64,000 bases of DNA from an uncultured Pseudomonadales bacterium (GCA_964457085.1 CAYWDM010000005.1:12065-76064), one strand, 5' to 3'. Shown: positions 1-64,000, counted from the first letter of the stretch. The notes: generated by a model not told the origin, from the letters alone. A program made the numbers and translations.

Positions 1-929
1 AACAAAAGGCCAAAGAGCCTGTGCTGAGTTTCGCCAAGCCCATCAGACAAACCATCACTCAAACACTTGATGCTTCAGGTTTGGTTGATGCCAAAGAAAA
101 AGCTCTACTTCGTTTTGTGGCAGGCGGCAAATTAACCTATCTCGGTGCCAAAGAAGGCGATGTAATTAAAAAATATCAAACCATTGCCCGCATCGACGCC
201 CGTGATCTTCAAAAAAGACTTGAGCGCAGTCTTAACACCTATTCACAGCAACGAAATAGTTGGGATCAGACCTTAGATGACACCAAAGATCGTGCCATCG
301 CCACTAAAGAAAATCGCACTGTAAACACTAACCAGTTAACCTTAAATAACACCGTCATCGATGTAGAATTGCAAGATATCGCCATTTCTAACGCAGCAAT
401 GACCTCACCAATCGCAGGTATTTTGGTAAGTGCTCCCACTGCAGTTTCTGGTGTAGTCATTGGTGCCACTGATACTTTTGGGGTTGTTAATCCCAGCACC
501 CTAGTTTTTCAGGCTGAAGTTGATGAGGCAGATATCGCCAAAGTCTCAGTTGGCCAAAAAGCGGCACTGTACCTTGATGCATACCCAGATCGTAAAATTG
601 AAACCTACGTCAGTTACATTGGATACCGTGCCATTAACACCAGTAGTGGCACCGCATTCCTAGTTGAACTACCGATCACCGCTGAAAATGCCATTGATAC
701 CTACCGACTCGGTATGAATGGTGATGTCAAAATTGAACTAGCCACTAAAGCAAATGTGTTAACTGTGCCACTCTCAGCCACCAAAGAACGTAGCTCAAAA
801 ATGTATGCTGATGTTAAGTCAGGCGACAATCAAGCCACTGAGCGAGAAATTGAAGCTGGCCTACAAACCGAAGATGTGGTGGAAGTCATCTCTGGTCTAA
901 GTGAGACAGATGAAGTTGTCCAACCATAA
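1..929 (+). CDS. HlyD-family periplasmic adaptor (membrane-fusion protein, MacA/YknX-like) of an ABC efflux system; 5'-truncated by window edge
   Basis: Reading frame is open from nt 3 with no upstream stop, so the N-terminus lies outside the window; beta-sandwich/lipoyl-like adaptor segments; followed directly by MacB-type ATPase and FtsX-type permease genes. Confidence 0.6.
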   Translation, partial: QKAKEPVLSFAKPIRQTITQTLDASGLVDAKEKALLRFVAGGKLTYLGAKEGDVIKKYQTIARIDARDLQKRLERSLNTYSQQRNSWDQTLDDTKDRAIATKENRTVNTNQLTLNNTVIDVELQDIAISNAAMTSPIAGILVSAPTAVSGVVIGATDTFGVVNPSTLVFQAEVDEADIAKVSVGQKAALYLDAYPDRKIETYVSYIGYRAINTSSGTAFLVELPITAENAIDTYRLGMNGDVKIELATKANVLTVPLSATKERSSKMYADVKSGDNQATEREIEAGLQTEDVVEVISGLSETDEVVQP

Positions 930-941
930 GTAAGTTAATTC

Positions 942-1700
942 ATGGCAAAAAAAACCAAGACCTCACCAGCTGCACCAAAAGCAATTGAGACTCCAGTAGT
1001 TCTTGAACTCAGACGTGTTTCAAAAGTCTATAAAATCGGTGATCAAACTATTCGTGCCCTAAATCAGCTCTCACTTTCCATTCATGAGGGTGAATTTGTA
1101 GCAGTCATGGGACCATCCGGATCTGGGAAATCCACTTTTCTACAAATTGCCAGCATGCTCGCAACTCCCAGTAGTGGAGAGATTTTTATCAAAGATCGCA
1201 ACGTCACTGCCTACAATGATGTGGAAAGTGCTCACCTGCGAAATAGCGAAATCGGTTTTGTATTTCAACAATTTAATTTACTGTCAAAAACTCCAGCAAT
1301 TGAACAAGTGGCACTACCACTAATTTACACGCCTGGCGTCACTGAACACGAGCGCATGCGACGCTCAAAAGAAATGCTGGAAAGATTTGGACTAGGAGAT
1401 CGGCTTCACAATACACCAGGAGAACTATCAGGTGGTCAACAACAACGTGTGGCCATTGCTCGGGCGTTGATTAATAACCCAGCCATCATTTTTGCCGATG
1501 AGCCAACCGGAAATCTTGATTCAAAAAGTGGCAAAGACGTAGAACAAATTTTAATGGAGTTAAACGAGGAGGGTCGCACCATCATCATGGTAACTCATAG
1601 CCAAGAGGCTGCAGAAATCGCCAAGCGCGAAGTCTTCATTAAAGATGGTGAGATTTTCTCTGACAAACCAATTACAAAACGTCGTGCCTACAAAAAATAA
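942..1700 (+). CDS. ABC transporter ATP-binding protein (MacB/LolD/YknY type)
   Basis: Walker A GPSGSGKST, ABC signature LSGGQQQRVAIARAL, Walker B IIFADEPT, H-loop VTHS. Confidence 0.9.
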   Translation: MAKKTKTSPAAPKAIETPVVLELRRVSKVYKIGDQTIRALNQLSLSIHEGEFVAVMGPSGSGKSTFLQIASMLATPSSGEIFIKDRNVTAYNDVESAHLRNSEIGFVFQQFNLLSKTPAIEQVALPLIYTPGVTEHERMRRSKEMLERFGLGDRLHNTPGELSGGQQQRVAIARALINNPAIIFADEPTGNLDSKSGKDVEQILMELNEEGRTIIMVTHSQEAAEIAKREVFIKDGEIFSDKPITKRRAYKK

Positions 1701-1702
1701 AC

Positions 1703-2929: not shown

Positions 2930-3454
2930 ATGCAGATTTTTAAATTTCTCTTAGTGTTGGTGGTGTTTTTAACAGTTGCTTGGCTCAGCATCAACACCCT
3001 GACTGCCCAAAAAATCATTCCCCTAAATCCCGTAGCTATAGTTGGATTACCCACCACCACCTGGAGTGATGCAGGAAGCACGTTGCAATCAGGTTTTCAA
3101 AATTTTAATACTTCACAATCAATTACTTCAAATGGTTGGCTTAACTCGACTTGGCAAAGTGTCCAAAAAGAGTTGGGTGCCCTAGGCACTCAAACAACAG
3201 AGGTAGCTAAACATGCTCAAAATGTCACCGGTGGCAAAGAATTAATTGGTGTTGCCAATCCAACCAACCCACCTGCACCCCAACTCGAAACAACTTCGAC
3301 ATCAGAATCAGCTAAACCAGCGTCACAAACATCAAATCAAATCACCCCTACTCCAGAACCGTTCTACACCAAGGCTTTGGACTACAGCAAATATGTCTAT
3401 TGTCAGGAAGTTGTCAGAGATTACGAGCTACAACATCCGGAGGTTAAAAAATGA
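2930..3454 (+). CDS. secreted hypothetical protein (signal peptide; Thr/Ser/Pro-rich)
   Basis: Hydrophobic N-terminus LLVLVVFLTVAWLSINTLTAQ; low-complexity TS-rich middle; 4-nt overlap with the downstream NOX-like gene. Confidence 0.4.
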   Translation: MQIFKFLLVLVVFLTVAWLSINTLTAQKIIPLNPVAIVGLPTTTWSDAGSTLQSGFQNFNTSQSITSNGWLNSTWQSVQKELGALGTQTTEVAKHAQNVTGGKELIGVANPTNPPAPQLETTSTSESAKPASQTSNQITPTPEPFYTKALDYSKYVYCQEVVRDYELQHPEVKK

Positions 3455-4761
3455 ACGTATCGTTGATTAAATCACTGACTCGTCCAGGATTTTTTACCAA
3501 TATCGGTTGGCTCGCCATTCTCTGTAGTTCTGCCGTCACTGTCTGTCTCTTTTGGTTGGCGAAGCAACAATACCCCGCCTTCACCAACTGGGTGCTTGGC
3601 ACACAGTTTACAGGAACCATCGGTCTATTTTGGTTGTGTTGGGCATATGTGCTCTCAATGAGGCATAGTTGGTTGGAAAAGTGGTTTAACGGCATCGACA
3701 GAGCCTATAAAGCCCATCACTTTATTGCCGTCACTGCATTTTTTACTTTACTCATACATCCTTTATTGATGGTGTTCCAAGACTTGCCAGCAAATAGTTT
3801 TGCACTCTACCTATTACCTGGAACATATTTTCCTTTCAACCTAGGCATCGTTGCACTATACGTGATGCTATTTTTAGTGGTGCTGACCATAGTCATTGAC
3901 TTGCCGTACTGGATCTGGAAGCAAACACATGAGTGGATGGGAGTGGTGCTACTACTTGGAGGGGCACATGGAATACTCGTTGCCTCTGATTTATCAAAAT
4001 ACTTGCCATTACAACTGTGGATGGTAATCTGGGTGCTGATAGCCACAGCAGCCATTATTTACAAAAGATTTTTATACTACTGGCTAACACCACCTTGTAA
4101 TTATCAGGTTGAGAAACTACAAAAAGAGAATGGTACGCTCATCATCACCCTAAAACCGCAGCTGCATAGTCATGCAATCCAATTACGACCTGGGCAATTT
4201 GGATTTCTCTCAATTCCAAACGTTGGCAGAGATCACGACGAGCATCCTTTTTCTCTCATGGAACAATCGGCACAAACAATAAGTTTTGGCATTAAGATCT
4301 ATGGTACTTTTACTGAAACACTGACAACACTTAAACCAGGTGCAGCAGTAACCCTTCGAGGTCCATTTGGACAATTTGGCGAGCATCTCCTACAAGCAAA
4401 ACAACAAGTCTGGATTGCTGGTGGCATTGGCGTCACACCATTCATTTCACTTTTAAGTGAAATCCAGCCCAATCAATCAGTCACTCTAATCTATGCCAAC
4501 CGCGGGCCTGCTCCAGCACTCTTTACAGCAAAAATAAAACAGTTTTTTGCAAAAAATAAAAAGTGCATGTATGTTGAACATGACACAGCAACACATGGTC
4601 GTTTAACCGCAGATAAAATCACCGAATATGCCGAATTAACTGCAAAAACAAGGGTGTGGCTTTGTGGTCCACCACCGATGATGATGGAGCTTGAAAAACA
4701 GCTTCCAATCCACGGAATTAAGAAAAAATATATTTATTTTGAAGATTTTTCGCTGAAATAA
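3451..4761 (+). CDS. NOX / ferric-reductase family transmembrane flavocytochrome (bis-heme TM domain + FAD + NAD(P)H domains)
   Basis: Two His pairs in TM helices (HHFIAVTAFFTLLIH and HEWMGVVLLLGGAH) with the roughly 13-residue spacing typical of bis-heme ligation; FAD motif HPFS; NAD(P)H motifs GPFG, GGIGVTPF, CGPPPM. Confidence 0.75.
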   Translation: MNVSLIKSLTRPGFFTNIGWLAILCSSAVTVCLFWLAKQQYPAFTNWVLGTQFTGTIGLFWLCWAYVLSMRHSWLEKWFNGIDRAYKAHHFIAVTAFFTLLIHPLLMVFQDLPANSFALYLLPGTYFPFNLGIVALYVMLFLVVLTIVIDLPYWIWKQTHEWMGVVLLLGGAHGILVASDLSKYLPLQLWMVIWVLIATAAIIYKRFLYYWLTPPCNYQVEKLQKENGTLIITLKPQLHSHAIQLRPGQFGFLSIPNVGRDHDEHPFSLMEQSAQTISFGIKIYGTFTETLTTLKPGAAVTLRGPFGQFGEHLLQAKQQVWIAGGIGVTPFISLLSEIQPNQSVTLIYANRGPAPALFTAKIKQFFAKNKKCMYVEHDTATHGRLTADKITEYAELTAKTRVWLCGPPPMMMELEKQLPIHGIKKKYIYFEDFSLK

Positions 4762-4781
4762 ATTACCAAATTAAATCAAAC

Positions 4782-5591
4782 TTACTTCGCACATACTCTG
4801 GTACCCACCCATTCCTTATCAGCCAAAGCTTTGTAGACATTATCTTTCTGCAATCCAGAAAGGATATACGACTCAACCCCATTCTTCAATAAATCTACAG
4901 ATTCTTGGACCTTCAATAACATGCCACCAGTAACATCGAATCCTTTAGTGCGACCAATTGCACTTTGGTATCCTGGCCAGTTTTCTGGAGTAATTCGTGG
5001 AATCACATTGCCATCAACATCAAGAACGCCGGGCACTTCAGTGATGTGAACAATTTTTTTAACCATGTAATCATGTGCCTTAAATTCTCTGGCAAAAAAT
5101 GCCAACACTTCTTCGGTTGACCAAATAGTACAGCCTTGTCCCAAATCTAAGAGCACATCACCGCCAGTAATTGGCACCATTCCTTTTGCTAAATAGCCTT
5201 CAAGCATATCTAAGAAAAACTTGGCTGGTTTGCGCTTATCTGTGATTAAAATATTACTTGGGGCCAGAGTCACTGCGGGCATTTCCTGACGGATACACTC
5301 ATAGACAACGTGACGATTTAGCTGTGCAGCACTATCTTGAACAATTGCCATACCCAATCGGCTCTCATCGTTCACAAATCCATCCATGGTGTGATATTGC
5401 GTGGCTGGCATGTGTGCAAAACTGCCCTGACCGTGGCCAATCACCAGTAATTCTTCTGGTTTTTCAGCTCGAGCTCGAGCAATTTGCTTGATCAAATCGA
5501 TCAATACTCCTTTGCGCAGAGACATCGGCACGTCTTTGTTGGTAATGATCGAACCACCTAGCTTAATTAAGTTAACAATTTTTTTTGACAT
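4782..5591 (-). CDS. isopentenyl phosphate kinase-like (amino-acid-kinase fold)
   Basis: N-terminus KLGGSIITNKD matches the IPK/amino-acid-kinase glycine-rich nucleotide loop; about 270 aa, too short for Asp/Glu kinases. Confidence 0.55.
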   Translation of the reverse strand: MSKKIVNLIKLGGSIITNKDVPMSLRKGVLIDLIKQIARARAEKPEELLVIGHGQGSFAHMPATQYHTMDGFVNDESRLGMAIVQDSAAQLNRHVVYECIRQEMPAVTLAPSNILITDKRKPAKFFLDMLEGYLAKGMVPITGGDVLLDLGQGCTIWSTEEVLAFFAREFKAHDYMVKKIVHITEVPGVLDVDGNVIPRITPENWPGYQSAIGRTKGFDVTGGMLLKVQESVDLLKNGVESYILSGLQKDNVYKALADKEWVGTRVCAK

Positions 5592-5630
5592 ACAGATTTA
5601 TTGCTCCGTAAAAGATTAGTATACAAAAAC

Positions 5631-6260
5631 TCATACATTTTGGCTCAAGATGTTTTGGGCCTGTAGTGCTGTTGGTAGTAATATCTTTTGGCCCAACAGG
5701 CTTTGAGCTGCAATCAAAGAGGTTGGCCTAATATTTTGCCAATCATTATTGAGAAAATCCTGCAATTTTTCGAGTGGAATTTCCAGCAACTCTTCGCCCT
5801 GTGGTAGTCTCCCACTCAAGTCATTCATTTGCTGCCAAGTGAACTCCACAAGTGGCAATGCAAAAACATAAAATAAAACATGCCCATCATCCCTGCGAAT
5901 TTGCTCAACTTTTCCAACCATCTCTGGTTTCCCACGCAACTGGTCAGGATGCAAAATAATGTCAGGCTTCTGCAAACTGCGGGTTTCTTCTGTAAATTCT
6001 CGACCGAAAGCATTTGGAACAAAAACTTCAGGTAGTTCACCGTCTTCCAGCTCAACCTTGCCACTCCACAATGCCCTCATTCCTTGAGCAATAGTAGTCA
6101 TTTCTACATCGTATGTAACACCAGTCATCGCATTTTCGACAACTCGTTCACGCTTGCCAAAATCTTCCTCATTCACAGGCCCCATCACAAAATTACCATT
6201 GAAAAAGGTAATTCCAACAACACCCGTACCTTGTTTAATTTCACTCATATCACACTCCAC
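5631..6260 (-). CDS. hypothetical protein
   Basis: Intact 209-aa ORF; last gene of a same-strand run downstream of the VirD4-like ATPase; no recognisable motif. Confidence 0.35.
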   Translation of the reverse strand: MECDMSEIKQGTGVVGITFFNGNFVMGPVNEEDFGKRERVVENAMTGVTYDVEMTTIAQGMRALWSGKVELEDGELPEVFVPNAFGREFTEETRSLQKPDIILHPDQLRGKPEMVGKVEQIRRDDGHVLFYVFALPLVEFTWQQMNDLSGRLPQGEELLEIPLEKLQDFLNNDWQNIRPTSLIAAQSLLGQKILLPTALQAQNILSQNV

Positions 6261-6633
6261 ATAGTTTCATGGCTAATGCCTCAACTAGTCGATCCTGATT
6301 ACCGATTGTTGCTGTAGCAAACCATTCATCGATTCCGACGTCCTCATCACCGAGCTCAGCTTTGGTGAGTGCGTACAACACCTCACTCATTAAAGTTATA
6401 AATTGTTCACCCAACGCCCCAACAAACTTTCCAGAGTCATAGTTCAGCCCACATTCTGGACAGACTGGCCTATCTTGGGTGTATATAGCCCCACACATGC
6501 CACAACTAAAACCCAGTTCAAATCTAAGTCGCTCAGCCCGCAGCCTCCAGTTTCTGGGTATTTCCATGACACTGTATGTGTCGAAAGTCACAACAAAAAA
6601 CACGCAACTGAAGTGTGTTGCGAAAATCACCAC
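6250..6633 (-). CDS. hypothetical protein with zinc-ribbon
   Basis: CGMCG...CPEC four-Cys ribbon; overlaps downstream gene by 11 nt. Confidence 0.35.
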   Translation of the reverse strand: MVIFATHFSCVFFVVTFDTYSVMEIPRNWRLRAERLRFELGFSCGMCGAIYTQDRPVCPECGLNYDSGKFVGALGEQFITLMSEVLYALTKAELGDEDVGIDEWFATATIGNQDRLVEALAMKLCGV

Positions 6634-6636
6634 CGA

Positions 6637-7395
6637 TTAAGCATCATTTAAAAATCGAGTGAAATCAATCAGGTTCATTTTGGTAGCTTTGAGTAGTTTG
6701 TATATCAATACTGCAGATTCGCGCGGACGACTGAGCAACTGATCTTTTTTGGTTCGAATTGTATTTAGTGCTCTTACGCAATCTCCATGACTTGGTTCTT
6801 TTGGTGCCATCCACATCGCAATCTGATCAAAAGCATCAACTGATTCTGTTGCTGCTGGAGCAACGCGCCATTCAACTCCAATCATGTTTTTTCCATCGGC
6901 AATTTGCCTGATATAACCAAATGCAATTCCCAAAGTAGTTTTTGAAACATCAATACCTCTTTTTACGCCTTCGCGGAAGTGATCTAGCTCATGCTCGATT
7001 GTTTCTAACCACTCTTTCTTATCAACTGGTATTAGAGGATATCCGTCTGCTCGAGCACTCTCGACCTCCTCTTCTACGATTTGGAACCAGCGTTCAGCAT
7101 GAGTTTTATCAAAATTTACAATATTAGCTTGAGATTGAAAAACTGTGTTAAATCCTAGGTATCTCTTATCAGCCTCAGTGAGATGTGGCAAGTCGTCTAG
7201 CCATATAGTAGATGGTTTTTGAATCTGGATTCTCACAGCAGCTCTCAGCTTGGCCTCTCCTTCAGGTGACATGATTTCAGTCCCGCTTAATACATGATTC
7301 AGGCCATCTTCAGCAACGGGAGTCTGCAACTCCTGGCTGCGATCTAGTTTGTGTGGAAGCGATTCATCTTTTGGAGCAACTTGATTTTCTTGCAT
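6637..7395 (-). CDS. hypothetical protein
   Basis: Intact 252-aa ORF immediately after the coupling-ATPase gene; no recognisable motif. Confidence 0.35.
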   Translation of the reverse strand: MQENQVAPKDESLPHKLDRSQELQTPVAEDGLNHVLSGTEIMSPEGEAKLRAAVRIQIQKPSTIWLDDLPHLTEADKRYLGFNTVFQSQANIVNFDKTHAERWFQIVEEEVESARADGYPLIPVDKKEWLETIEHELDHFREGVKRGIDVSKTTLGIAFGYIRQIADGKNMIGVEWRVAPAATESVDAFDQIAMWMAPKEPSHGDCVRALNTIRTKKDQLLSRPRESAVLIYKLLKATKMNLIDFTRFLNDA

Positions 7396-9857: not shown

Positions 9858-10565
9858 CTAACTATCGAGTTTTCGATATATTACCTTACCTACAAACATT
9901 TTCATGATCTTATGACTCCATTCAACCAACCATCTGACACTAAACTTAGGACTCTTCTTGGCTCCAGCTTCCTCAATCGCTGGAGTAATGGGCACCACTA
10001 CCACGGCTTGCTTGGGCAATGGATGATTCTGAGGTAAGTTTTTAATCGCATCAACAATCACTATTTCTTTGGGAAGTTGATCAGCTTGCTGTTCGACTTT
10101 GTTGAGATATCCCTCAACTTCAGGTGGCAACTCTGGATTTTTCTCAATCTCAACCGCTTGAATTCCCGTACCAGACTCAGCTTGTGAGGAATTGTCTGGA
10201 GTTTTTGAACCTAATGATTCTTTAGCGGTAGTTGTTGGAGTCGCTGGATTGAGGGTATTGGTGGCGTTAAGAATTGCCTGAGGCATCACCTGTGCCAACT
10301 CACCAGTCTCTTTAACTGCCTGCTGCATCGCTTCTTCAGCAGCTTTTCGTGCCTCGTCACTTTTTGCTGAAGCCTCATTAATGGCCTGCTCCAACAACGC
10401 CAAAGCGTCTGTCTCTGGAAGTGGAGTGGGTGTTACTGGAGAGGTGCTGTTGACTGCAGTAGAGACACCACCAGCAAGGACAGTGTTTTGGTCATCAGTT
10501 TTCTGATCATCTTGTTGCTGTATTGGGGTAGCTGGCTGTGTTGGTAAAAGTGAATTATCATTCAT
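9858..10565 (-). CDS. hypothetical low-complexity (Thr/Pro/Ala/Glu-rich) protein
   Basis: Intact ORF with biased composition; lies between the Lgt-like and VirD4-like genes. Confidence 0.3.
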   Translation of the reverse strand: MNDNSLLPTQPATPIQQQDDQKTDDQNTVLAGGVSTAVNSTSPVTPTPLPETDALALLEQAINEASAKSDEARKAAEEAMQQAVKETGELAQVMPQAILNATNTLNPATPTTTAKESLGSKTPDNSSQAESGTGIQAVEIEKNPELPPEVEGYLNKVEQQADQLPKEIVIVDAIKNLPQNHPLPKQAVVVVPITPAIEEAGAKKSPKFSVRWLVEWSHKIMKMFVGKVIYRKLDS

Positions 10566-22639: not shown

Positions 22640-22640
22640 A

Positions 22641-23394: not shown

Positions 23395-23402
23395 ATCTCC
23401 TC

Positions 23403-23411: not shown

Positions 23412-23416
23412 AGCAT

Positions 23417-23785: not shown

Positions 23786-23797
23786 AGCAGTATAATC

Positions 23798-38297: not shown

Positions 38298-38549
38298 ATT
38301 TATGTATATATATACTAGTAATAGTAGTAGTAGAGATGGTGGATAGGTGGATAACAACTTTCTTCACCTCTGGTTTTACGGTCATTTTTTAAATGGAAAA
38401 CTGTCATAGTATCGGGCATATCTCTGTGAATTTAAATGGTTAAAAGTACATAACTTTACAGCTGTCTTCGTAAAAGTGTAGCTTTTATTCACACTTCTTA
38501 GAAAATATCTACAACTTTATTCACATAGTTATCTACTTTTGTGGATAAC
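38298..38549. other. candidate chromosomal replication origin (oriC): DnaA-box cluster plus AT-rich unwinding element in the dnaA-dnaN spacer
   Basis: Perfect box TGTGGATAA (reverse complement of TTATCCACA) at 38540-38548; 1-mismatch boxes at 38346-38354, 38485-38493 and 38517-38525; 2-mismatch boxes at 38338-38346 and 38529-38537; AT-rich run ATTTATGTATATATATACTAGTAATAGTAGTAG at 38298-38335. Confidence 0.75.
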
Positions 38550-55277: not shown

Positions 55278-56987
55278 TTAGGCGCCGGTATTCACCTGTG
55301 TTGGTTTGGCTACTTGATGTTTCTCTTTCTTGTCTTCTAAGAAAGCACTAAACATCTTTGCTGGGTCTTCAGCATCAAGTATGCGACCTTCTTTTGTACG
55401 ATCAATAGTTTTACGCATTGATTGACCACGGTCGTAACCAACTTTGCCCCATCTCTTGACACCACCTCGAAGAATTGAGTTGCCATCTCTATCTTGAGAA
55501 TATGGTGACTCACCAGTTTTTGCAGCTCTACCAAGGTCTCTCCAGTTGAATGCTTTGCTGAAGTTCTTTGTTTTGCGTGCGTCGTTGAGATAATTACCAG
55601 CACCATATAGTCCACCTGCAGCTCCGCCAGCCATGCCTCCAAGTACTGGCAATGCAACCTCACCCTGGCCCCAGTTCTTAACCATTGAATTGCCGAGCTG
55701 CTCAAAGACACTACCTTTAACGCCCACAGCTTTTTTCATTTCCACGATCAACTCTGGCATGATCAAAATAATACCGACGCCGACAAGAGTACTAATAGTT
55801 CCTGCTACGCCACGACCAATTAAAAATGGAGGTAAAAATCCACCTGTATCAAGTTGTGTGGCAGCGAACATTCTATAAATAATGATGATTAACAAGGTAG
55901 TTGGGAAGGCCAATAAATTACCGGTGAGGTTTACGATCCACTCTTTAAATGCATTGTGTCCTGGCAATGCACCCATCATTAAAATCAGAGGTGCAAAAGC
56001 AATGCTCAGAACAATAGTGATGTAGGTTTTGAGTAGTTCAAAAAAGAGCTTGAAGACTGCAATCAGTACCGCAACTGCCATGATAACTGCAGCCGTTAGA
56101 CCTGAAAGCCAACCGATAGCATCGCCAATACCATCCATGTTGATTGCGGCTTTAACCACATCATCAACATTGTCCCAAACAGCGGTGGTGGCTTTAACTC
56201 CGGCTCCATTTTGACCAGATAATACACTCCATCCAAGGTCAAAAATACTGTATTGCATGATGTCTTGAGCACTTGAGGCAGAGAACATGCCTACCAGCAG
56301 ATACATTACTAAATACATTAAATCGATCATTAAGCCAGCAATAGCATAGGAAAAGGTAACAAAAATTAGTGAAACCACAATATTTGGAATTGCCTGCTGC
56401 ATGGTAACCGCAGTTTGGCCGATTTTTTGACGGAACATGATCATGAAACCAATGACGAGAAACAAAATCACAAAAATGAGGTAGGCGAGGTTGCGAAATA
56501 ACTTCCAGACTTCGAGCACTGGATCTAGAGCTGCAAAGCCTAAGCCTTGAGCCTGTGCTTGTGGAATGATGTGAGCTGTATTTAATAAATCAGCCACATA
56601 CGTAACTGAGCTAGCTGGTGGAGTGTATAAAGCTACGATACCTTCCGTAAATGAGCCGAGGGCACCGCCTTTGCCATATCGAGCAACCATTCGAGCTCGA
56701 TCTTCTGGAGGTAATGCAGCCAAGCCACTTTTGCTTGGCCCTAACATATGGAGAATTCCTACTGATGCATTGTCAATATATAGTGATCCTGCAAGGTGTC
56801 GAAGATTGGCAAATCCTTTTTCACCTTCGTTCTCGGCGTCTAATTGGGCATCAGAGTTTTTGTTGGCGTCATTTTTGCCAAACCAATCATCCCAAATTGA
56901 AGCATGTGCCGATGTTGGTGCCGCCAAGAATAAAATAGTGGTGAATACTACGATGGTTAAAAAATGGAATAACCTTGTCCGGCGCAT
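55278..56987 (-). CDS. VirB6/TrbL-like polytopic membrane protein
   Basis: Signal peptide, about 130-aa extracytoplasmic domain, then six to seven TM helices and a Gly/Lys/Arg-rich cytoplasmic tail; architecture typical of VirB6/TrbL. Confidence 0.45.
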   Translation of the reverse strand: MRRTRLFHFLTIVVFTTILFLAAPTSAHASIWDDWFGKNDANKNSDAQLDAENEGEKGFANLRHLAGSLYIDNASVGILHMLGPSKSGLAALPPEDRARMVARYGKGGALGSFTEGIVALYTPPASSVTYVADLLNTAHIIPQAQAQGLGFAALDPVLEVWKLFRNLAYLIFVILFLVIGFMIMFRQKIGQTAVTMQQAIPNIVVSLIFVTFSYAIAGLMIDLMYLVMYLLVGMFSASSAQDIMQYSIFDLGWSVLSGQNGAGVKATTAVWDNVDDVVKAAINMDGIGDAIGWLSGLTAAVIMAVAVLIAVFKLFFELLKTYITIVLSIAFAPLILMMGALPGHNAFKEWIVNLTGNLLAFPTTLLIIIIYRMFAATQLDTGGFLPPFLIGRGVAGTISTLVGVGIILIMPELIVEMKKAVGVKGSVFEQLGNSMVKNWGQGEVALPVLGGMAGGAAGGLYGAGNYLNDARKTKNFSKAFNWRDLGRAAKTGESPYSQDRDGNSILRGGVKRWGKVGYDRGQSMRKTIDRTKEGRILDAEDPAKMFSAFLEDKKEKHQVAKPTQVNTGA

Positions 56988-57132: not shown

Positions 57133-57960
57133 ATGACGGAAGAGCTAGAGCGTTTAGCTCAATTATTACAACCTGCTAAAACTGTCCTAATCATAGTGGG
57201 TGAGTCTGCAAATTTTGAACAGTTGGCAACTGCATTGGCCTTGACCCAGACAATACAATCCGCAGGCAAAGAAGTGCAGGTTTGTTGTCCTGTCTTGCCG
57301 ACTCAATTACAGATTGTTCCTGAACATTTAGCCTTGATTTCAAGACTTGAGTTGGTTTCAAACTCACTTGGCAAACAAAATTTGATTATTAGCTTTGATT
57401 ACGTGGAGTCTGCTGTAGACAAAGTGAGCTATGCGATTAGTCAAGACAATAAGAAATTCTTTCTCACTATAAAACCACAGGCTGGTGCTAAACCACTAAA
57501 TGCAGAGTCAATTGGTTTTGAATATGCCGGAACTTCAGCCGATTTGATTTTCTTGTTGGGAGTTCACGACTTATCCAGTTTAAGACAACTGTATTTTGGA
57601 TATGAAGAAATGTACGTCAACACACCTATTATTACTATCAACAATTCAAAACCAGATTTCAGCCATATTCACTTCAATGTTGCGGACGTAAGTTGCTATG
57701 CCGAGATGGCAACCATGATGCTTGGCGGATTACAACTCGATATTGCGGGAGAGTCCGCAACTTTATTGTATGCAGGCATGGCATTGGCCACCAAATCATT
57801 TTCAGCTGCAAAAGTACAAGCCAATTCATTTGAGATTGCAGCTGAGCTGCTTCGACGTGGTGCAAGACGACCAAAAGAGCTGCAGTTAATACAGTCAAAC
57901 AATCAAACTCCGAACAACTCAGGCAAAAAAGACTACAAAAATAATTCGAGACAGAAATAA
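57133..57960 (+). CDS. DHH-like (NrnA-like) protein with degenerate catalytic motifs
   Basis: VLIIVGESANFEQLATALALTQTIQSAGKEV aligns with the NrnA N-terminus, but the DHH-family H-x-x-P-D-G-D motif is replaced (GESANFE). Confidence 0.3.
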   Translation: MTEELERLAQLLQPAKTVLIIVGESANFEQLATALALTQTIQSAGKEVQVCCPVLPTQLQIVPEHLALISRLELVSNSLGKQNLIISFDYVESAVDKVSYAISQDNKKFFLTIKPQAGAKPLNAESIGFEYAGTSADLIFLLGVHDLSSLRQLYFGYEEMYVNTPIITINNSKPDFSHIHFNVADVSCYAEMATMMLGGLQLDIAGESATLLYAGMALATKSFSAAKVQANSFEIAAELLRRGARRPKELQLIQSNNQTPNNSGKKDYKNNSRQK

Positions 57961-57996: not shown

Positions 57997-60702
57997 CTAT
58001 TTAGCTGCTGCACCAGATTCATTGAGTAGAATGGCAGTGGTAATTGAGCCAGGGCGTTCATACTTAGGATATTTTCTGCCTTCAGCGAGTGACTGACAAA
58101 TTGTTGAATTGGAATAGCAATATGAGGCGGCACTAGTCATCAGTTGCTCGATTCGTTCATCTGTCAGCCCGTACGTGGCTTTATAACTTTCAAGCTTGGC
58201 TCTGAGTTGTTCCATTTCAGTTACATTTGGATCAATATTGCAGCTGAATTCAACAAAATCCAAACAATAAATCAAGTCCATATCGCTATGACGTTCATCA
58301 ATCCAACCGAGTGGATGGGGATGATCTTCTGATTGGAATTGGGCTGGGCATTTACCACCTCCACGCCATCTTGTTGGTCGCTGTTGACCACTGAGATCAC
58401 TACTACAATTCATGTTGCCTGGTCCGTTGAAGCCGCCGATGGCAATGGTGAGGTCCTGGTATGAGATGCTGTCTTTATTAAATCCTCCCGGCCAAAATGA
58501 CTTCAAATGTTCCATGGCTGCTTTAGCATCTTCTTTTAGTGCGCCTCGAAGTGCACCGCCATCAAACACAGATTGACTCGGGTCATTTGCACCCTCAGTC
58601 CAGTGAATACCCGCTACTACTTCACAAGGAATTCCAGTTTCTTTTTCTGCATATTCATATGCTTCGATGTCCGATTCAGTGATTCCAGGTTCAATTTCTG
58701 AATCATAAACACCCTTAGCATATTGGGGAATGCCACTACTTGGTGGTAATCCAGTGATTTTCTTAAAGGCTTCGCCTGTACACTTAGGTGTTTCTTCTTC
58801 ACCGTTTGGTTCAATTTGACACCGACCGAGGAATAGATCTTCGGTACGAGTACATTTAATCTGCAAATGCGGCTGGCGAACTGTTTCTTGTAGCTTGCGG
58901 ATCATCCAGCCTAGTCTTGCCCCCAAAATTCTAAATTGTTCTTGACCTTCTGGTGAAATTGATGCTCCAAATCGTTTGGTTGGATATTTACAGACCCAAA
59001 TACCCAGCCTGTTATATTCACACACTGGTGGGGCAGTGTAGTCAGTATATGTATGTTGCGGTGTGCTTGTTTTAAAGAAAGCTATTGATTCTTTAATTGG
59101 ATAATATTCTGGCACTCCTAATTTATTTTCATAATCAACCATGACGTTTTTTGCTTCCATGGCTTCATACGCACCTGGCTGGAATAAGGCTTTCAGAGTA
59201 CTCTCGACATATTTGAGATCTGTTCCAAGTGGTACGACTAGATGTGCAACCACACGCATTGTTTGACCACTCACATTTCGATAGGCTTCAGATTCTTCAA
59301 CCACTACCTCCCAATCAAAGACAAATCTACGATCCGAAGGTATGACATATGGGAAATAGGGGGCAATTGGCAGCCGATTGTCGCCATTAATTAATCCAGG
59401 TGAACCAATGTCACCGGCATTTTCGAGTGGCATATACGACTCGCCGCAGGCATTGCCAATTCCATTGATAATATCTATGACGGCACGTTGTAGAATTTCT
59501 TCTGGACCCGAGCGACAAGGGTAGAGGGCACAGTATTTGAGGATTGGAAACTCATATCTTTTGGCTTTTATTGCAGCCATGTATCCAGTCCTAACTTCTT
59601 TCGAATCTTTGTCGATAACTTTAATTTGTTCTGGATCCCAATGCAGATCGTTGAGGATTTTGGAAGTATCTTTGAACTTTGACATCAGTGCCGACTTGTT
59701 GGTGGCAAAATCTGGAATCTTGAATGCAACCACAATTGGAGCATCAAGAGTGGCATTAATATCCTCTGGTTGTTTGCGGAACCAGAAAACATCATCAAAA
59801 CCTTCGAGGTCTTCATCACGGTTTTGTCTAATTGAGACAACCAAGAAGCCTGTTCTATAGAGCAAGTTTTGGTCAATACTATAGTGATTAAGTGCATCGC
59901 TCCATCCTGCCAGATCTGCCTTATTGGAAAATCCCATTCGTTCTTTATGGATAGCGGGGTCGTATGCTTTAACAAACTCGCCGCAAAAAGCCGCATTGTC
60001 GTTGAATTTCTCGCGAGCACCATTCATTACCTTCATCAAATCTGTCATGTGGATTCCAGGGCTTTCAGGGATTTTGACATTGATGGCGCAATTAGATCTA
60101 CATCCCAGTTTTTCCATCACTGCCCACATCTCATTCATGGTTTTAACTTTGAGATTGCACTGGACTTCAGGGTTTAGTAGCTGATACACAGCACCTCGAC
60201 TATTGGTTTCGTCTGGTGGCAATTCTGGATTTACCACGCCAACCAATCCTTCCAGTGATGAGATTTTATTGGTGATGCTGGTATCTTCGTCACCTCTCAT
60301 CATGGCAATACGAGAGTTGGTCATATCAACTGTATATGGATCTTTATAGCCTCGCAGATACACCGGCCCTTTGTAGTTTTTAGGATCAAGGTATTTTTGG
60401 ACATCTCCAAACACACTCGGAGCCATGTGCCACTGAGGGGCTGCACAGTGGACCTCATATCCTTGATCTTGCACTAGGTTGGCAACCAACACATCCTGCA
60501 GACTATTTGGGTCATCAAGCGTGAGTTCTGGCCTCATGATCAGAGGCAAAAAGTTGTATTTTTCAGCATCACGAGTTGGCCATGGTTCTGTTTCGGCAAA
60601 AGTTGTGGAAGTGGTTGCCACGCACAACAAAAACAACCAAATGCTGATTTTGAAAATAACACTGGTCAGTCGACTAGTGAGGTGCACCCAATTATTATAC
60701 AA
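57997..60702 (-). CDS. large secreted Cys-rich protein (901 aa), unknown function
   Basis: N-terminal signal peptide (ISIWLFLLCVATTSTTFA); many Cys throughout; last gene of the pilin / pilin-fusion operon. Confidence 0.4.
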   Translation of the reverse strand: MYNNWVHLTSRLTSVIFKISIWLFLLCVATTSTTFAETEPWPTRDAEKYNFLPLIMRPELTLDDPNSLQDVLVANLVQDQGYEVHCAAPQWHMAPSVFGDVQKYLDPKNYKGPVYLRGYKDPYTVDMTNSRIAMMRGDEDTSITNKISSLEGLVGVVNPELPPDETNSRGAVYQLLNPEVQCNLKVKTMNEMWAVMEKLGCRSNCAINVKIPESPGIHMTDLMKVMNGAREKFNDNAAFCGEFVKAYDPAIHKERMGFSNKADLAGWSDALNHYSIDQNLLYRTGFLVVSIRQNRDEDLEGFDDVFWFRKQPEDINATLDAPIVVAFKIPDFATNKSALMSKFKDTSKILNDLHWDPEQIKVIDKDSKEVRTGYMAAIKAKRYEFPILKYCALYPCRSGPEEILQRAVIDIINGIGNACGESYMPLENAGDIGSPGLINGDNRLPIAPYFPYVIPSDRRFVFDWEVVVEESEAYRNVSGQTMRVVAHLVVPLGTDLKYVESTLKALFQPGAYEAMEAKNVMVDYENKLGVPEYYPIKESIAFFKTSTPQHTYTDYTAPPVCEYNRLGIWVCKYPTKRFGASISPEGQEQFRILGARLGWMIRKLQETVRQPHLQIKCTRTEDLFLGRCQIEPNGEEETPKCTGEAFKKITGLPPSSGIPQYAKGVYDSEIEPGITESDIEAYEYAEKETGIPCEVVAGIHWTEGANDPSQSVFDGGALRGALKEDAKAAMEHLKSFWPGGFNKDSISYQDLTIAIGGFNGPGNMNCSSDLSGQQRPTRWRGGGKCPAQFQSEDHPHPLGWIDERHSDMDLIYCLDFVEFSCNIDPNVTEMEQLRAKLESYKATYGLTDERIEQLMTSAASYCYSNSTICQSLAEGRKYPKYERPGSITTAILLNESGAAAK

Positions 60703-60759: not shown

Positions 60760-61110
60760 TTAATACCCTAAGATATCAATTCCAAAGACTTGTTCCACTA
60801 TTTGAGCAATCCAGTACGAAGCGAATAACAATATAAAGCCAACAAGTGCTGCGGTGACACGTTGCTTGCCGGAGTCAACTGATTTTTTTCCTGCCGCACC
60901 AATCATCATTTCGGCTCCACCAGCAACCAACATTACAAAGAGAATCATTCCCGCGATTGGGAATAAGTAGGCAAGTAAGCGATTTATGATGCCCTCTGGA
61001 GTAGAAAGTTCGACTGTAGCAGTCGAATTAGCAAGTTTGAGTGGATTGAGTTCGTCCAATGTTTGTTTGGTAACTTTTTCAAATCCAGAAAGACTAGCGA
61101 GTAGTGACAT
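60760..61110 (-). CDS. T4SS pilin-like protein, paralog 8
   Basis: MIGAAGKKSVDSGKQRVTAALVGFILLFASYWIAQIV matches the pilin family motif; preferred start MSLLASL (61110) abuts the upstream gene stop. Confidence 0.55.
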   Translation of the reverse strand: MSLLASLSGFEKVTKQTLDELNPLKLANSTATVELSTPEGIINRLLAYLFPIAGMILFVMLVAGGAEMMIGAAGKKSVDSGKQRVTAALVGFILLFASYWIAQIVEQVFGIDILGY

Positions 61111-61111: not shown

Positions 61112-62302
61112 TTAAGTATCTCCAAATCCAGGAATTCTAAAAATGCTGACACCAATAAATTGCAACATAGTTATAGACATAATGATGAATATGAGTCCAA
61201 TGACAGCTGAAGTAATCATTTCTCGACCTTCATCAGTTTTCTTGGCGTCTCCTTGTGAAGTGCTAATGGTAAAGCTGGCTGCCAAGATCATTAATAGTGC
61301 CACGCCACCGGCAACGCCCATACCTACTCGAATCACCACCACGACGATACTCTGAGGATCATTCTCAATACAGCCTACAGCTGTCCAGATACCCAGGGGA
61401 ATTTCTGGTGCGGGTGGTATCCCAGATCCATTTACATTTTGCCCAGCAACACAGCGTGCACATTTACCATATGCCTCTGAATCTTCTGGAATTTGTGCAC
61501 AGATGTCAAAAGTGGTGTCTGATGTGGGGGTAGTTCGAGCTGCGTCGTCACAAGCCTGGATTAAATCAAATTCTTTGGTGCAGAGTATGTCACCACTGCC
61601 AAGAAATTCGCCGTCACTGACTTCGATTGTTAATGTGTCGCCGACTCGAGTTTCTACTGGTGTGAAGGTGATGTCTGGAATCACACCGTTCACAGCATCT
61701 TCGTTATATTGAAACGCATCTTGGCTGTTTTTGACGTGAATTTTTTGGTTGGCTAAGCCACCATTGATGAAAATATTTGAAACGTGGATAGTCAGTTTAC
61801 CACTTTCAAAATCAATGCAGTAGGTATCGCTGAAGCCTCCTTGATCCACAGAAATATTACAGCTATCACTAGATTCAATTTGAAATTGACCAACCTCGCA
61901 CCAATCTCCTGATGCTGTATCTTGAATTTTAATGTCGTATGAGCCAGAAATGTTGGTGCTGGGGGGTGCTGCTGAAAATGTACCAGTGCGTTCTCCAGAT
62001 ACATTTCCAATGAAAATCGGGTTGCCTTGGTTACCTAGTACGTTGTATCGCTGTAGTGCAATTTTATAATTTTTCGTCGTCACGAACCCATCTAGCTTAA
62101 AGGTAAATGAGCCTCCACCCTGGATAGAAGTGGGTGGAGCGGCTCCAAAAAAGTTAATACCCCAATTGTCTTGACAGGATTGGGCTGCTGCTGCAGATGC
62201 CTGCTGAGCAAATAGTGACAAAAATCCAACGCCGCCTAACACAATTGCTAACAGCACGTTGCCAAATTTAGTCATCTGTCTTTTTAAGACTATTGATTGC
62301 AC
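61112..62302 (-). CDS. secreted protein with C-terminal pilin-like module (candidate minor pilin / pilus adhesin)
   Basis: Signal peptide; about 300-aa Cys-containing extracellular domain; C-terminus VGMGVAGGVALLMILAASFTISTSQGDAKKTDEGREMITSAVIGLIFIIMS matches the pilin hairpin motif. Confidence 0.55.
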   Translation of the reverse strand: MQSIVLKRQMTKFGNVLLAIVLGGVGFLSLFAQQASAAAAQSCQDNWGINFFGAAPPTSIQGGGSFTFKLDGFVTTKNYKIALQRYNVLGNQGNPIFIGNVSGERTGTFSAAPPSTNISGSYDIKIQDTASGDWCEVGQFQIESSDSCNISVDQGGFSDTYCIDFESGKLTIHVSNIFINGGLANQKIHVKNSQDAFQYNEDAVNGVIPDITFTPVETRVGDTLTIEVSDGEFLGSGDILCTKEFDLIQACDDAARTTPTSDTTFDICAQIPEDSEAYGKCARCVAGQNVNGSGIPPAPEIPLGIWTAVGCIENDPQSIVVVVIRVGMGVAGGVALLMILAASFTISTSQGDAKKTDEGREMITSAVIGLIFIIMSITMLQFIGVSIFRIPGFGDT

Positions 62303-62356
62303 AGGCGTATTGTACTAAATTTTATCTGATGTGGTAAGAATTCGTTTTTAAACGAA

Positions 62357-62388
62357 ATCGTCCGTCCAGGTTTCCCGGGACGGACGAA
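62357..62388 (-). terminator. probable rho-independent terminator after the 62401..62820 gene
   Basis: CGTCCGTCC-aggtttccc-GGACGGACG 9-bp GC-rich stem just downstream of the minus-strand stop; moderately U-rich tail on the minus strand. Confidence 0.5.
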
Positions 62389-62400
62389 GATTTACAAGTT

Positions 62401-62820
62401 CTACTTGCCAGAAAACAACCGCTTCGCATAGAAGAGGCCTGGCAACCAGAACAAGATGCCCATCAGGTCTACGCTGCTCCAACTAGTGAGCAGATAGAAC
62501 CCAGTGGGGTTTTTGATCGCGGAAAAAACCACCATAGCCGCGAACCACAGCCACCACCAATTGTTCTTCATCAGTCTGGAGTTCAAATACATGATGAACA
62601 CAAAGGGCCAAATAAAGATGATCGCAATGAGTGGATGAGGGCTGGGACCCATGATGCGCTGCGATATCAGACCGATAATCGCAAACACCAATAAGATTCC
62701 ATTCCTGAGGCGGATGTCGAGTCCGTTCCAGAACTTCCAGAAACTCGCTCTCAGCGGATCGGTGGATTTTTTTAAGGAACTAAAAAAGGAACTAACAGCA
62801 GTTTTCACAGTGACCTCCAA
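62401..62820 (-). CDS. small integral membrane protein, unknown
   Basis: Four TM helices; 139 aa. Confidence 0.4.
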   Translation of the reverse strand: MEVTVKTAVSSFFSSLKKSTDPLRASFWKFWNGLDIRLRNGILLVFAIIGLISQRIMGPSPHPLIAIIFIWPFVFIMYLNSRLMKNNWWWLWFAAMVVFSAIKNPTGFYLLTSWSSVDLMGILFWLPGLFYAKRLFSGK

Positions 62821-62982
62821 GTCAAATCAGTGGGTTACGTTTGGAGAGTCCAACTCGCATTGAACTCATGTATTCATACTAGCACAAACCATCTCAATAG
62901 TCAAACATTATAGGCCTCTTAGAAGCCTATAAATCAAGATAAGTGGGGGCATTTTGGACAACTTTCCGCTATACTAGTTAAG

Positions 62983-64000
62983 ATGAGAATGTCTCGTTTT
63001 GTCATCAGGTGGTTGATAGCTTGTTTGGTGCTGGTTGCATTTGGTTTTTGGGGCATACTCACTGACTTTCAGGTTTTTGCTGTTGATCCAGTTGATGATC
63101 TGCAATCACAGATTAATGAGTTGGAAAAACTAAAGAAAATGAGCACCGATGCCACCAAGCCACTGGAGAAAGAGCTGGCGGGTTTGGAGCAGAAAATCAG
63201 AAATGCTCAAAATGGCATCATCGCTGCTAAGACACAAGTTGAGCAAGTAAGTGTTGATATTAAAAAACGAGAAGAAGATTTGGCGATACAGTATGTGATG
63301 TTTTCCAGTCGGATTGCTGCCTCATATCGTCGTTCACGAACCTATTCACCATTTTTGTTGTTTTTAAATACTGGCAGTGCAGCACAACTAACCAAAGATT
63401 TGGCATACCAGACTTCAGTACAAGCTCAAGACAACAAATTAATTCGTGGTATTGGTGAAGAGATTGGTAGTCTGCAAAAAGACAAGCAAAAACTTGAGCA
63501 AGATCAGATTCGTTTAGCTAAATTGCAGTCACAACTAGATGGTCAGGCTCAGTTTTTCCGCAAGGAAATTGAAGGTGCTAAAGCCTACCAAAAGGATCTT
63601 TCAGGTAAGATTGCCGATCTATCAGCCAAACAGCAGTCGATTATTAATGCTCGTTCAGGTACAGCAATTACTTCAGTGGGCGAGGTGCCACTTGCTGATG
63701 ATTTTAACGCTTCTATCGGTTTTAAATCACAAGCACCTGGCAATAGTTTTGCACTGTTTAGTTTTGGTGGCTACACTCATCGTAACGGTATGAGTCAGTA
63801 CGGTGCTAATGCTCGTGCCAAGGATGGCCAGTCTGTTGAAGATATTCTGAAAGCATATTACCCCAATGCGTCGATCAAAAAAGATTTTTCGGCAATGGGT
63901 AGTATTAACGTTCAAGGCACCGGCACAATTTCATTCGAGGATCAATATCTGCAGGGTATCTATGAAATGCCAGCTAGCTGGCATATTAATGCACTCAAGG
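62983..64000 (+). CDS. coiled-coil protein with SpoIID/LytB-like domain; 3'-truncated by window edge
   Basis: Not in the ORF track because there is no stop in the window. Manual frame-1 translation is open from ATG 62983 to nt 64000: signal/TM (WLIACLVLVAFGFWGIL), long coiled coil, then GGYTHRNGMSQYGANARAKDGQSVEDILKAYYPNASI, which matches the SpoIID/LytB G-x-G-H-G-x-GMSQYGA region. Confidence 0.6.
   Translation, partial: MRMSRFVIRWLIACLVLVAFGFWGILTDFQVFAVDPVDDLQSQINELEKLKKMSTDATKPLEKELAGLEQKIRNAQNGIIAAKTQVEQVSVDIKKREEDLAIQYVMFSSRIAASYRRSRTYSPFLLFLNTGSAAQLTKDLAYQTSVQAQDNKLIRGIGEEIGSLQKDKQKLEQDQIRLAKLQSQLDGQAQFFRKEIEGAKAYQKDLSGKIADLSAKQQSIINARSGTAITSVGEVPLADDFNASIGFKSQAPGNSFALFSFGGYTHRNGMSQYGANARAKDGQSVEDILKAYYPNASIKKDFSAMGSINVQGTGTISFEDQYLQGIYEMPASWHINALK

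Follow-up and report, generated by a model that had tools for sequence, protein, structure and literature searches.

A type IV secretion-like system without mobility genes beside dnaA on a Patescibacteria-like chromosome

The window analysed here, the whole stretch of 64,000 nucleotides from contig CAYWDM010000005.1 (12065-76064; GCA_964457085.1), carries genes for components of a type IV secretion system (T4SS) near a probable replication origin. Coding density is high, with about 61 genes in 64 kb and gaps that are mostly shorter than 100 bp, and Pfam gives ordinary housekeeping roles to about half of these genes. The T4SS-like genes lie among them in four patches, at 7.4-9.8, 24.3-26.5, 40.2-49.5 and 55.3-62.3 kb. 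The third patch is the core operon, which reaches to 51383 if the gene g53 is included. The main genes of the first three patches, together with dnaA, are as follows.

40230-42350, minus strand: VirB4 ATPase core of the MPF_FATA / CD1110 type, without the N-terminal domain (NCBIfam NF045971)
42352-43338, minus strand: TrsD-like protein, a detached VirB4 N-terminal domain (NF041427 TrsD, 5e-7)
43397-44698, minus strand: PrgI/VirB3-like membrane protein with two transmembrane helices, fused to a C-terminal CarboxypepD_reg-like beta-sandwich (PF12666, 6e-4)
44741-45787, minus strand: g51, a conserved bitopic membrane protein with one N-terminal transmembrane helix and repeated extracellular alpha/beta domains
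45753-49535, minus strand: 1260-aa M23 protein (Peptidase_M23, 5e-20; NCBIfam peptidoglycan hydrolase models)
38550-40172, minus strand: dnaA (Bac_DnaA, 1e-64), starting 57 bp past the virB4 stop on the same strand
24259-24654, 24654-25091, 25095-25445, 25521-25925 and 25973-26476, plus strand: five tandem VirB2-like pilin genes (PF18895 T4SS_pilin, each 2e-7 to 5e-10)
7442-9838, minus strand: ATPase like VirD4, the type IV coupling protein (T4CP), with an N-terminal transmembrane helix, a DUF8128 alpha/beta domain and a P-loop ATPase domain

The VirB4 protein scores 376 bits against NF045971, above the cutoff of 325, and also matches the Pfam family P-loop_TraG (9e-25). Its Walker A (AKSGAGKS) and Walker B (ILVVDEA) motifs are both intact. 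The match covers only model positions 176-733 of 752, because the N-terminal part is encoded separately as TrsD. The TrsD-like protein in turn aligns to the N-terminal portion of two VirB4 models, NF045975 and NF045971, and PF26593 (TraC-like) is on record for its homologue in the related locus L090. In the PrgI/VirB3-like family, PF12666 is found in 61 of 61 members (best 2.4e-9), and so is PF13620. The M23 protein starts with an N-terminal region of about 700 aa that has no signal peptide; by the hydropathy profile a hydrophobic, Gly/Ala-rich stretch follows at about 734-930, and the C-terminus is an M23 peptidoglycan endopeptidase. A local bump in GC content at 46-48 kb is due to the Gly/Ala-rich segment. 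The M23 protein is a putative functional analogue of VirB1.

The locus was compared with the best 80 of 267 VirB4-bearing species-level GTDB genomes by searching these 80 loci with every window protein in tblastn. VirB4 identity across these relatives is 68-83%. The genes keep a collinear order on the same strand, namely M23-g51-prgI-trsD-virB4-dnaA-dnaN-yidD-yidC-jag-rnhA-DUF4012-L25. In every informative relative rnpA, too, keeps its place in this order, between dnaN and yidC. In all 76 informative loci dnaA directly follows virB4; the other four contigs end just past virB4. The trsD gene adjoins virB4 in 74 of the 80 loci, and the C-terminal domain of the M23 protein is kept in 42 of them. 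The distal parts of the T4SS region vary among the relatives. A scan for consensus promoters and terminators was uninformative about co-transcription of virB4 and dnaA, since the counts were at or below chance.

VirB4 is the most conserved protein near the origin. It is more conserved than DnaA in each of 71 paired comparisons (medians 73% vs 56%), and it also stands above YidC (56%) and DnaN (44%). The best plasmid-borne VirB4 proteins are at most 36% identical to it; they belong to the CD1110 family and come from Firmicutes and Actinobacteria (Pontibacillus, Streptomyces, Priestia and Enterococcus). The conserved order linked to dnaA, the conservation of VirB4 and the low identity to plasmid proteins together support the reading of the apparatus as a stable chromosomal organelle.

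The relatives also point to the host. Three families typical of the candidate phyla radiation (CPR), DUF5654, DUF4012 and PF18895, are encoded in the window. Among contigs of one genome per GTDB species, the nearest VirB4 relatives are nearly all from metagenome-assembled genomes (MAGs) labelled Patescibacteria, Candidatus Pacebacteria/Paceibacterota or Woesebacteria, with a few apparent mislabels; the NCBI phylum for such MAGs is Minisyncoccota. By this kinship the window is apparently the oriC-proximal chromosome of a Patescibacteria (CPR) bacterium akin to Candidatus Pacebacteria/Paceibacterota MAGs. An earlier, preliminary description of this DNA had thought of an episymbiotic bacterium with a small genome, and the near-uniform Patescibacteria/CPR labels of the close relatives agree with it.

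The same description had drawn attention to T4SS-like genes standing in 64 kb of DNA without any hallmark of mobility. This was borne out by a systematic scan, in which Pfam was run at E<=0.01 on every open reading frame (ORF) of at least 60 aa and NCBIfam at E<=0.1 on the 20 ORFs that had no convincing Pfam match. No relaxase, Rep, tyrosine or serine recombinase (integrase, resolvase) or transposase family was found in the roughly 61 window ORFs. The scan could be carried on into the neighbouring sequence on the left by means of a Logan contig that is 100% identical to the first 2.6 kb of the window. This flank of 9,059 bp encodes a glycosyltransferase-like protein, a NUDIX protein, an Exo_endo_phos nuclease, an HTH regulator and proteins without an assignment; no relaxase, integrase or other mobility gene was detected in it.

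Target sites and repeats gave the same picture. ARAGORN found no tRNA or tmRNA in the window, no Rfam family matched it, and it contains no att-like repeats. Exact direct repeats of at least 16 nt all lie inside the pilin array, except for an A-rich low-complexity pair at 16465 and 17519 that flanks no T4SS gene, and longer imperfect repeats are at chance level. A weak hint of an HUH relaxase in the preliminary description did not hold. Histidine-hydrophobic-histidine tripeptides occur six times, against 3.45 +/- 1.8 in shuffled proteins, which is chance level, and one of the six is the active-site HxH of the M23 protein. Several individual proteins were considered as cryptic relaxases and rejected. 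A sequence search of the PDB with the cytoplasmic proteins g07, g09, g11, g54 and g56 returned nothing relaxase-like; the motif of g09 is HExxH rather than HUH, and g56 resembles a degenerate DHH phosphoesterase.

Composition was examined by GC skew and k-mers. Over the T4SS genes the tetranucleotide z-score stays within +/-1.6. The only deviation, of about +2, falls on a low-GC stretch at 30-42 kb that holds L25, yidC, dnaN, dnaA and the start of virB4. GC content at third codon positions (GC3) is 0.25-0.39 in the T4SS genes and 0.26-0.45 in the other credible genes. Neither profile shows a compositional island over the T4SS genes.

These results bear on the possibility that the T4SS genes are a remnant, or an active copy, of an integrative and conjugative element (ICE) or plasmid inserted near oriC. 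In favour of such an origin, VirB4 belongs to the conjugative CD1110/MPF_FATA family, a T4CP-like ATPase is present, the VirD4-like gene stands beside a variable gene spot, and the negative search covers the window and its left flank but not the right flank. It is nevertheless very improbable: no relaxase, integrase, transposase, tRNA or att repeat was found in 64 kb and a further 9 kb, the composition and GC3 of the T4SS genes are like those of housekeeping genes, their order relative to dnaA is the same in 76 of 76 loci, VirB4 conservation exceeds that of DnaA, and no plasmid homologue is more than 36% identical.

The T4SS genes are interleaved with essential genes, as had been described from the sequence at first reading; dnaA, dnaN, rpmH, valS and recF were each confirmed. 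Pfam confirms dnaA, dnaN, rnpA, yidD, yidC, jag/KhpB, RNase H and recF, and further assigns ribosomal protein L25, undecaprenyl-diphosphate synthase, an ECF sigma factor, peptidyl-tRNA hydrolase, lgt, an ATP-dependent DNA ligase, a Fic protein and a MacB-type ABC exporter. The valS gene was confirmed against the T. thermophilus valyl-tRNA synthetase (ValRS) with an E-value of 3e-146. Two further features lie close to dnaA.

36988-37137, minus strand: rpmH, a 49-aa ORF
38346..38548, no strand: probable oriC, four DnaA-box-like 9-mers clustered in the dnaA-dnaN spacer

Matches to TTATCCACA with at most one mismatch number 15 in the window. Four of them, including the sole perfect one, fall in the dnaA-dnaN spacer (192 bp). 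The cumulative GC skew has its minimum at about 35-38 kb. From the DnaA-box cluster together with the skew minimum, oriC is predicted near 38.4 kb. If replication starts in that cluster, the entire 11-kb T4SS operon (to 51383) and dnaA are both on the lagging-strand side and are read head-on against the rightward fork. The GC skew is positive at 42-47 kb despite the minus-strand genes there.

Seven ORFs in the window have a pilin domain, five in the array and two in the fourth patch. Their alignment shows two hydrophobic helices that flank a conserved EWITSGGDKGKTE loop. The first pilin of the array is 19-31% identical to the other six, and the closest pair is 67% identical. This pair is formed by the third gene and the fourth (25521-25925; PF18895 7e-10), the latter being a 79%-identical DNA repeat of its neighbour. 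The fourth patch contains the following genes.

60760-61110, minus strand: sixth VirB2-like pilin (PF18895, 1.4e-7); start revised to the ATG at 61110, with the same 116-aa product on Logan contigs
61112-62275, minus strand: 387-aa pilin-domain protein (PF18895, 0.0064; NF045849, 1e-3)
57997-60702, minus strand: secreted Cys-rich protein of about 900 aa upstream of this second pilin pair, with an N-terminal hydrophobic segment and no family or PDB match
55278-56987, minus strand: g55, a polytopic membrane protein with a signal peptide and about 6-7 transmembrane helices by its hydropathy profile

The 387-aa protein consists of a signal peptide, an extracellular domain of about 300 aa and a C-terminal two-helix domain that aligns with the other pilins. 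Between these genes, on the plus strand at 57133-57960, g56 encodes a 275-aa protein with weak PDB matches to DHH, NrnA and RecJ-like phosphoesterases (E 0.14-0.6), in which the catalytic DHH residues are apparently lost.

The NCBIfam model NF045849, which describes the Mbov_0395 family of pilin-like conjugal transfer proteins from Mycoplasma ICEs, matches six of the seven pilin-domain ORFs at E 1e-3 to 2e-7, below its cutoff. It is the sole NCBIfam match for five of the seven and the best match for a sixth. These matches suggest that some MPF_FATA systems may have pilin-like genes of their own that were not taken over from the T4SSs of diderm bacteria. The VirB2-like pilins of the window may have been inherited from an MPF_FATA ancestor that resembled the Mycoplasma ICEs. 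Just upstream of the pilin array (23417-26476, plus strand) and divergent from it lie an ECF sigma factor and two small ORFs, one with transmembrane segments (22286-23460, minus strand). The small ORF with transmembrane segments may encode an anti-sigma factor, and the ECF sigma factor may regulate the array.

Two membrane proteins stand where channel subunits might be sought. One is g51, at the spot in the operon where a VirB8-like protein is expected. It has a homologue in 42 of the 80 loci, with about 27% identity. No sequence relative was found by Pfam on all 40 members or by a 40-sequence profile against the PDB. Its AlphaFold2 (AF2) model has a pLDDT of 72 and a pTM of 0.64, and the best Foldseek match is YycH (9a5d_B; E 1e-4, TM-score 0.34). 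VirB8, TcpC and PrgL were tried as identities for g51 and were supported neither by profile searches nor by Foldseek, whose nearest structure was YycH. The other is g55, which is a candidate for a VirB6-like channel subunit by its topology only. It has no Pfam, NCBIfam or PDB match, and no match to TrbL, VirB6 or PrgH was found.

At its upstream end the core operon begins with a gene of narrow distribution.

49566-51383, minus strand: g53, the first gene of the operon, 605 aa with a C-terminal Cys-rich zinc-ribbon-like motif, lineage-specific and without a family match

Homologues of g53 occur in just six of the 80 loci, and L090 has a non-homologous 708-aa ORF at the same position. Divergent from the operon, at 51697-55158 on the plus strand, g54 encodes a cytoplasmic protein of 1153 aa. 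Its family is rare (85 cluster representatives out of 1.84 billion), and only the C-terminal 400 aa or so are conserved. No Pfam or PDB relative of g54 was found, the PDB profile search giving coiled-coil noise only. Neither g53 nor g54 has a homologue in a relative whose VirB4 is 81% identical.

The VirD4-like ATPase is the most distant of the T4SS-like proteins on the left. Its Walker A (GKTGTGKS) and Walker B (YVDEF) motifs are intact. Pfam matches it to TrwB_AAD_bind (6e-9), DUF87 and TraG-D_C, with the single best E-value for DUF87/HerA; the NCBIfam matches, TraD at 1.7e-12 and the VirD4-like CD1115 at 3.6e-10, are all far below the cutoffs. Sequence alignments of the ATPase domain go to T4CP models. 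There are 6898 homologues, the best 120 of which are 75-92% identical and carry PF26449, PF01935 and PF10412. In Foldseek the AF2 model (pLDDT 70) matches full-length TrwK/VirB4 at 4e-15; the matches to TrwB, DotL, Cag-beta and HerA are near 1e-9. The modelled fold assigns the protein to a superfamily, within which T4CP, VirB4 and HerA appear alike.

The neighbourhood of this gene recurs in relatives as DUF5654-Fic-ligase-GT2-pth-MFS-GH3-lgt-DUF192-g11-VirD4-...-AA kinase-MacB-ABC-HlyD. In MNZB01000004 (L088) the VirD4-like gene is about 31 kb from virB4, as in the window, at a protein identity to the window of only 74-79%. The gene next upstream is g11.

9858-10565, minus strand: g11, 235 aa, mostly low-complexity with a conserved hydrophobic C-terminus

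An ORF of 240-272 aa is found at the position of g11 in L081, L082 and L088, and g11 has no Pfam, NCBIfam or PDB match. On the other side, between the VirD4-like gene and the MacB/ABC exporter, is a variable spot at 3451-7395 in which there is no mobility gene. The ORFs g05 (ferric-reductase-like), g08 (zinc-ribbon) and g09 (252 aa with HELDH, an HExxH motif) are absent from this spot in L081, L082 and L088.

The position of the VirD4-like gene raises the question of whether the four patches form a single machine. The T4SS might instead consist only of the operon adjacent to dnaA and the pilin array. The VirD4-like/DUF8128 ATPase would then have an unrelated function, for example as a translocase of DNA or protein similar to FtsK/HerA, and the distal pilin-domain genes might likewise do something else. 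The VirD4-like gene is 31 kb distant, in a conserved housekeeping neighbourhood (lgt, pth, DNA ligase), its fold fits VirB4, HerA and T4CP about equally, and in published work the t4cp homologue is both far from virB4 and non-essential (PMC12102498). On the other hand, the ATPase domain aligns by sequence to T4CP models, CD1115 among them, though the best Pfam E-value is for DUF87/HerA. Within this lineage the conservation of the protein is similar to that of VirB4, and genuine T4SSs often have their T4CP gene at a distance from virB4 (PMC12102498). Separate machines are an unlikely arrangement, yet one to be taken seriously, and it is compatible with the explanation preferred below for the rest of the locus.

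That explanation is that the T4SS is the Patescibacteria's own, vertically inherited, non-mobile chromosomal system, and it is held with high confidence. What the window and its relatives show directly is the gene content, the absence of mobility genes, a synteny that is conserved, and purifying selection that is strong. The preliminary description had preferred a stable chromosomal apparatus to a conjugative element, and collinearity with dnaA, VirB4 conservation above that of DnaA, the retained spacing of about 31 kb between the VirD4-like gene and virB4, and the lack of an island all speak for it.

Several points count against this explanation. The negative result for relaxases covers known HMM (hidden Markov model) families, and a relaxase of an unrecognised family would be beyond their reach. 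The search for mobility genes spans the window and 9,059 bp to its left, not the sequence to the right of 64000. VirB6-like and VirB8-like subunits were not identified, g55 being a candidate by topology only and the g51 model resembling YycH. By analogy with Southlakia, where the VirD4-like homologue is reported to be non-essential (PMC12102498), the VirD4-like ATPase may stand outside the apparatus, and its predicted fold does not part it from VirB4 or HerA. Finally, the organism is known from metagenomes only.

The best-studied relative of such a system is found in a saccharibacterium. Using transposon sequencing (Tn-seq), Wang et al. (2023) found that an apparent T4SS, SEML1_0006-0019, and a series of pilins are essential for the epibiotic growth of Southlakia epibionticum (PMC10633639). 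No coupling or relaxase protein was recognisable in the SEML1 cluster, and the authors proposed protein export or an alternative role (PMC10633639). In a survey of 3,035 Patescibacteria genomes, Quinonero-Coronel et al. (2025) found VirB4 in 2,417, as a monophyletic clade nested in MPF_FATA (PMC12102498). Relaxases occurred in only 103 of the 3,035 genomes, T4CP homologues were usually far from virB4, and TrsD, PrgI and pilin arrays of 2-11 genes were described (PMC12102498). The genes dnaA, dnaN, rnpA and rpmH were enriched near virB4, which the authors read as a gene-dosage effect (PMC12102498). According to a 2025 review, loss of comEC abolishes competence and leaves viability unaffected, and the T4SS or pilus is speculated to be a conduit for signals or host molecules (PMC12857230).

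In the preferred explanation the window system derives from monoderm conjugation machinery with a CD1110-type (MPF_FATA) VirB4. Its relaxase and integration module were lost or were never there, and arrays of VirB2-like pilins have been added. A mechanism can be proposed as well. The split VirB4 (TrsD and VirB4), held at the membrane by the PrgI/VirB3-like protein, would drive the assembly of a membrane channel and of a pilus-like filament built from the divergent pilins, while the large M23 protein would open the peptidoglycan locally. The apparatus might then touch the host bacterium and move proteins or other molecules across the interface rather than mobilise DNA. The distant VirD4-like ATPase may act as a substrate receptor or have a separate role. 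Pilus formation, substrate and direction of transport can only be inferred here, and essentiality for epibiotic growth is a published result on the homologous system and pilin array of Southlakia.

Alternatively, the apparatus may transfer DNA, either exporting chromosomal DNA or importing host DNA or nucleotides in the manner of archaeal Ced and H. pylori ComB, with no relaxase or with an unrecognised one. The highly conserved VirD4-like ATPase is of the DNA-translocase type, several conserved or large proteins nearby have no assigned function (g11, g53, g54), and CPR bacteria are unable to synthesise nucleotides (PMC10633639). VirB4 and the VirD4-like protein also give weak matches to the DNA-import models CedB and CedD, but these reach 52 bits against a cutoff of 700 for CedB and 28-31 bits against 600 for CedD. 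No known relaxase family was detected, and the t4cp homologue is non-essential in Southlakia (PMC12102498). Moreover, competence in Southlakia needs comEC and type IV pili, and comEC loss leaves the cells viable, whereas the T4SS is essential (PMC12857230). DNA transfer is considered improbable.

The preliminary description had suggested a pilus for attachment or DNA uptake. Attachment, or a conduit to the host, is plausible but unproven. DNA uptake is disfavoured as the essential function because comEC loss ends competence without an effect on viability (PMC12857230). A more speculative idea, offered at long odds, is that the epibiont takes up macromolecules of its host (DNA, nucleotides or lipids) through the apparatus, which would work as a conduit independent of a relaxase; the conserved head-to-tail link to dnaA and oriC might couple its expression to replication initiation, and g11, g51 or the C-terminal domain of the g54 family might be a new substrate-processing factor.

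A few other features of the window lie apart from the T4SS. At 27891-30618, the ValRS gene encodes 762 aa, compared with 862 aa in T. thermophilus, and its end overlaps the next ORF (30130-30618), which encodes 162 aa and has weak matches to coiled coils; the C-terminal coiled-coil domain of ValRS may have been split off or frameshifted. The ATP-dependent DNA ligase (16820-18661, minus strand) adjoins a Fic-domain protein with a C-terminal HTH (18699-19787, minus strand), and the pair is kept in MNZB01000004. An ORF-poor stretch at 62303-62982 has a single long ORF (62401-62820, minus strand), the GC3 of which is 0.66 vs about 0.35 elsewhere, so that its status as a gene is doubtful; no Rfam match to a non-coding RNA was found at 62.3-63.0 kb even at E<=1. 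On the plus strand, a partial ORF (62983-64000) is cut off where the window ends on the right. Its product begins with a hydrophobic segment, followed by a long coiled coil and a C-terminal part that looks SpoIID-like by eye, with no family match; the ORF may encode a cell-wall remodelling protein.

Much of bacterial diversity belongs to the CPR/Patescibacteria, which are host-dependent. No T4SS before theirs had been reported as essential for its own carrier. The window is a well-resolved Pacebacteria-like example, with very strong conservation and a fixed linkage to the origin, and raises no question beyond the literature of 2023-2025. Its additions are small: the excess of VirB4 over DnaA conservation in 71 of 71 comparisons, the adjacency of virB4 and dnaA in 76 of 76 loci, the structural negative for g51 as VirB8, the operon's apparently head-on direction with respect to the predicted oriC, and the likeness, below cutoffs, of the pilins to the Mycoplasma-ICE pilin-like family.

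Among known systems, the DNA-import machines Ced and ComB are not close, with Ced scores of tens of bits against cutoffs of 600-700. None of the marks of an ICE or conjugative plasmid (a MOB relaxase; an integrase, att site or tRNA; foreign composition and patchy distribution) was found in the window. The rvh T4SS of Rickettsiales, which serves host interaction by an obligate symbiont, is similar in being chromosomal and in having several islands of genes dispersed between housekeeping genes; it also has duplicated components and lacks a relaxase (PMC12102498, PMC2653234). Unlike the window system, it is a diderm MPF_T system with VirB7-B11, and the two are not evolutionarily close. The Mycoplasma ICE (Mbov_0397 VirB4 and Mbov_0395 pilin-like protein; NF045975, NF045849) provides the second-best model for VirB4, the best for TrsD, and matches to the pilins. 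However, the window scores are all below the family cutoffs, and Mycoplasma ICEs are mobile with a DDE recombinase, none of which was found in the window.

The MPF_FATA conjugative T4SSs (CTn2/CD1110, pCF10 Prg/Pcf, pGO1 Trs and pCW3 Tcp) are closer. They share with the window a VirB4 that exceeds the CD1110 cutoff, TrsD, PrgI, a cell-wall hydrolase and a monoderm architecture without VirB7, VirB9 and VirB10. In Firmicutes and Actinobacteria these systems are located on plasmids or ICEs with a relaxase, an origin of transfer (oriT) and a T4CP, and without VirB2-like pilins, whereas the window has no mobility genes and seven pilin-domain genes.

The closest match is the T4SS of the Patescibacteria clade, as known from Southlakia and from the survey (PMC12102498). 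Shared features are a VirB4 derived from MPF_FATA and encoded next to TrsD, a membrane protein like PrgI/VirB3, an operon that includes a peptidoglycan hydrolase, divergent VirB2-like arrays, no relaxase, a distant T4CP-like gene, proximity to dnaA, dnaN, rnpA and rpmH, and a CPR host. Each defining trait of this clade was found in the window: kinship of VirB4 (by score and identity, not by a tree), adjacency of TrsD and PrgI, a PF18895 array, the lack of a relaxase, and a chromosomal place beside dnaA, beyond which lie dnaN, rpmH and rnpA. Compared with the Southlakia system, the class is Pacebacteria-like and not Saccharimonadia, the pilin array is 14 kb from the core operon rather than inside it, PrgI carries a fused beta-sandwich, an M23 fusion of 1260 aa serves as the hydrolase, and no homologue of VirB6 is detectable by sequence. 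With these differences, the locus and its interpretation are an instance of a system that has already been published (PMC10633639, PMC12102498, PMC12857230).

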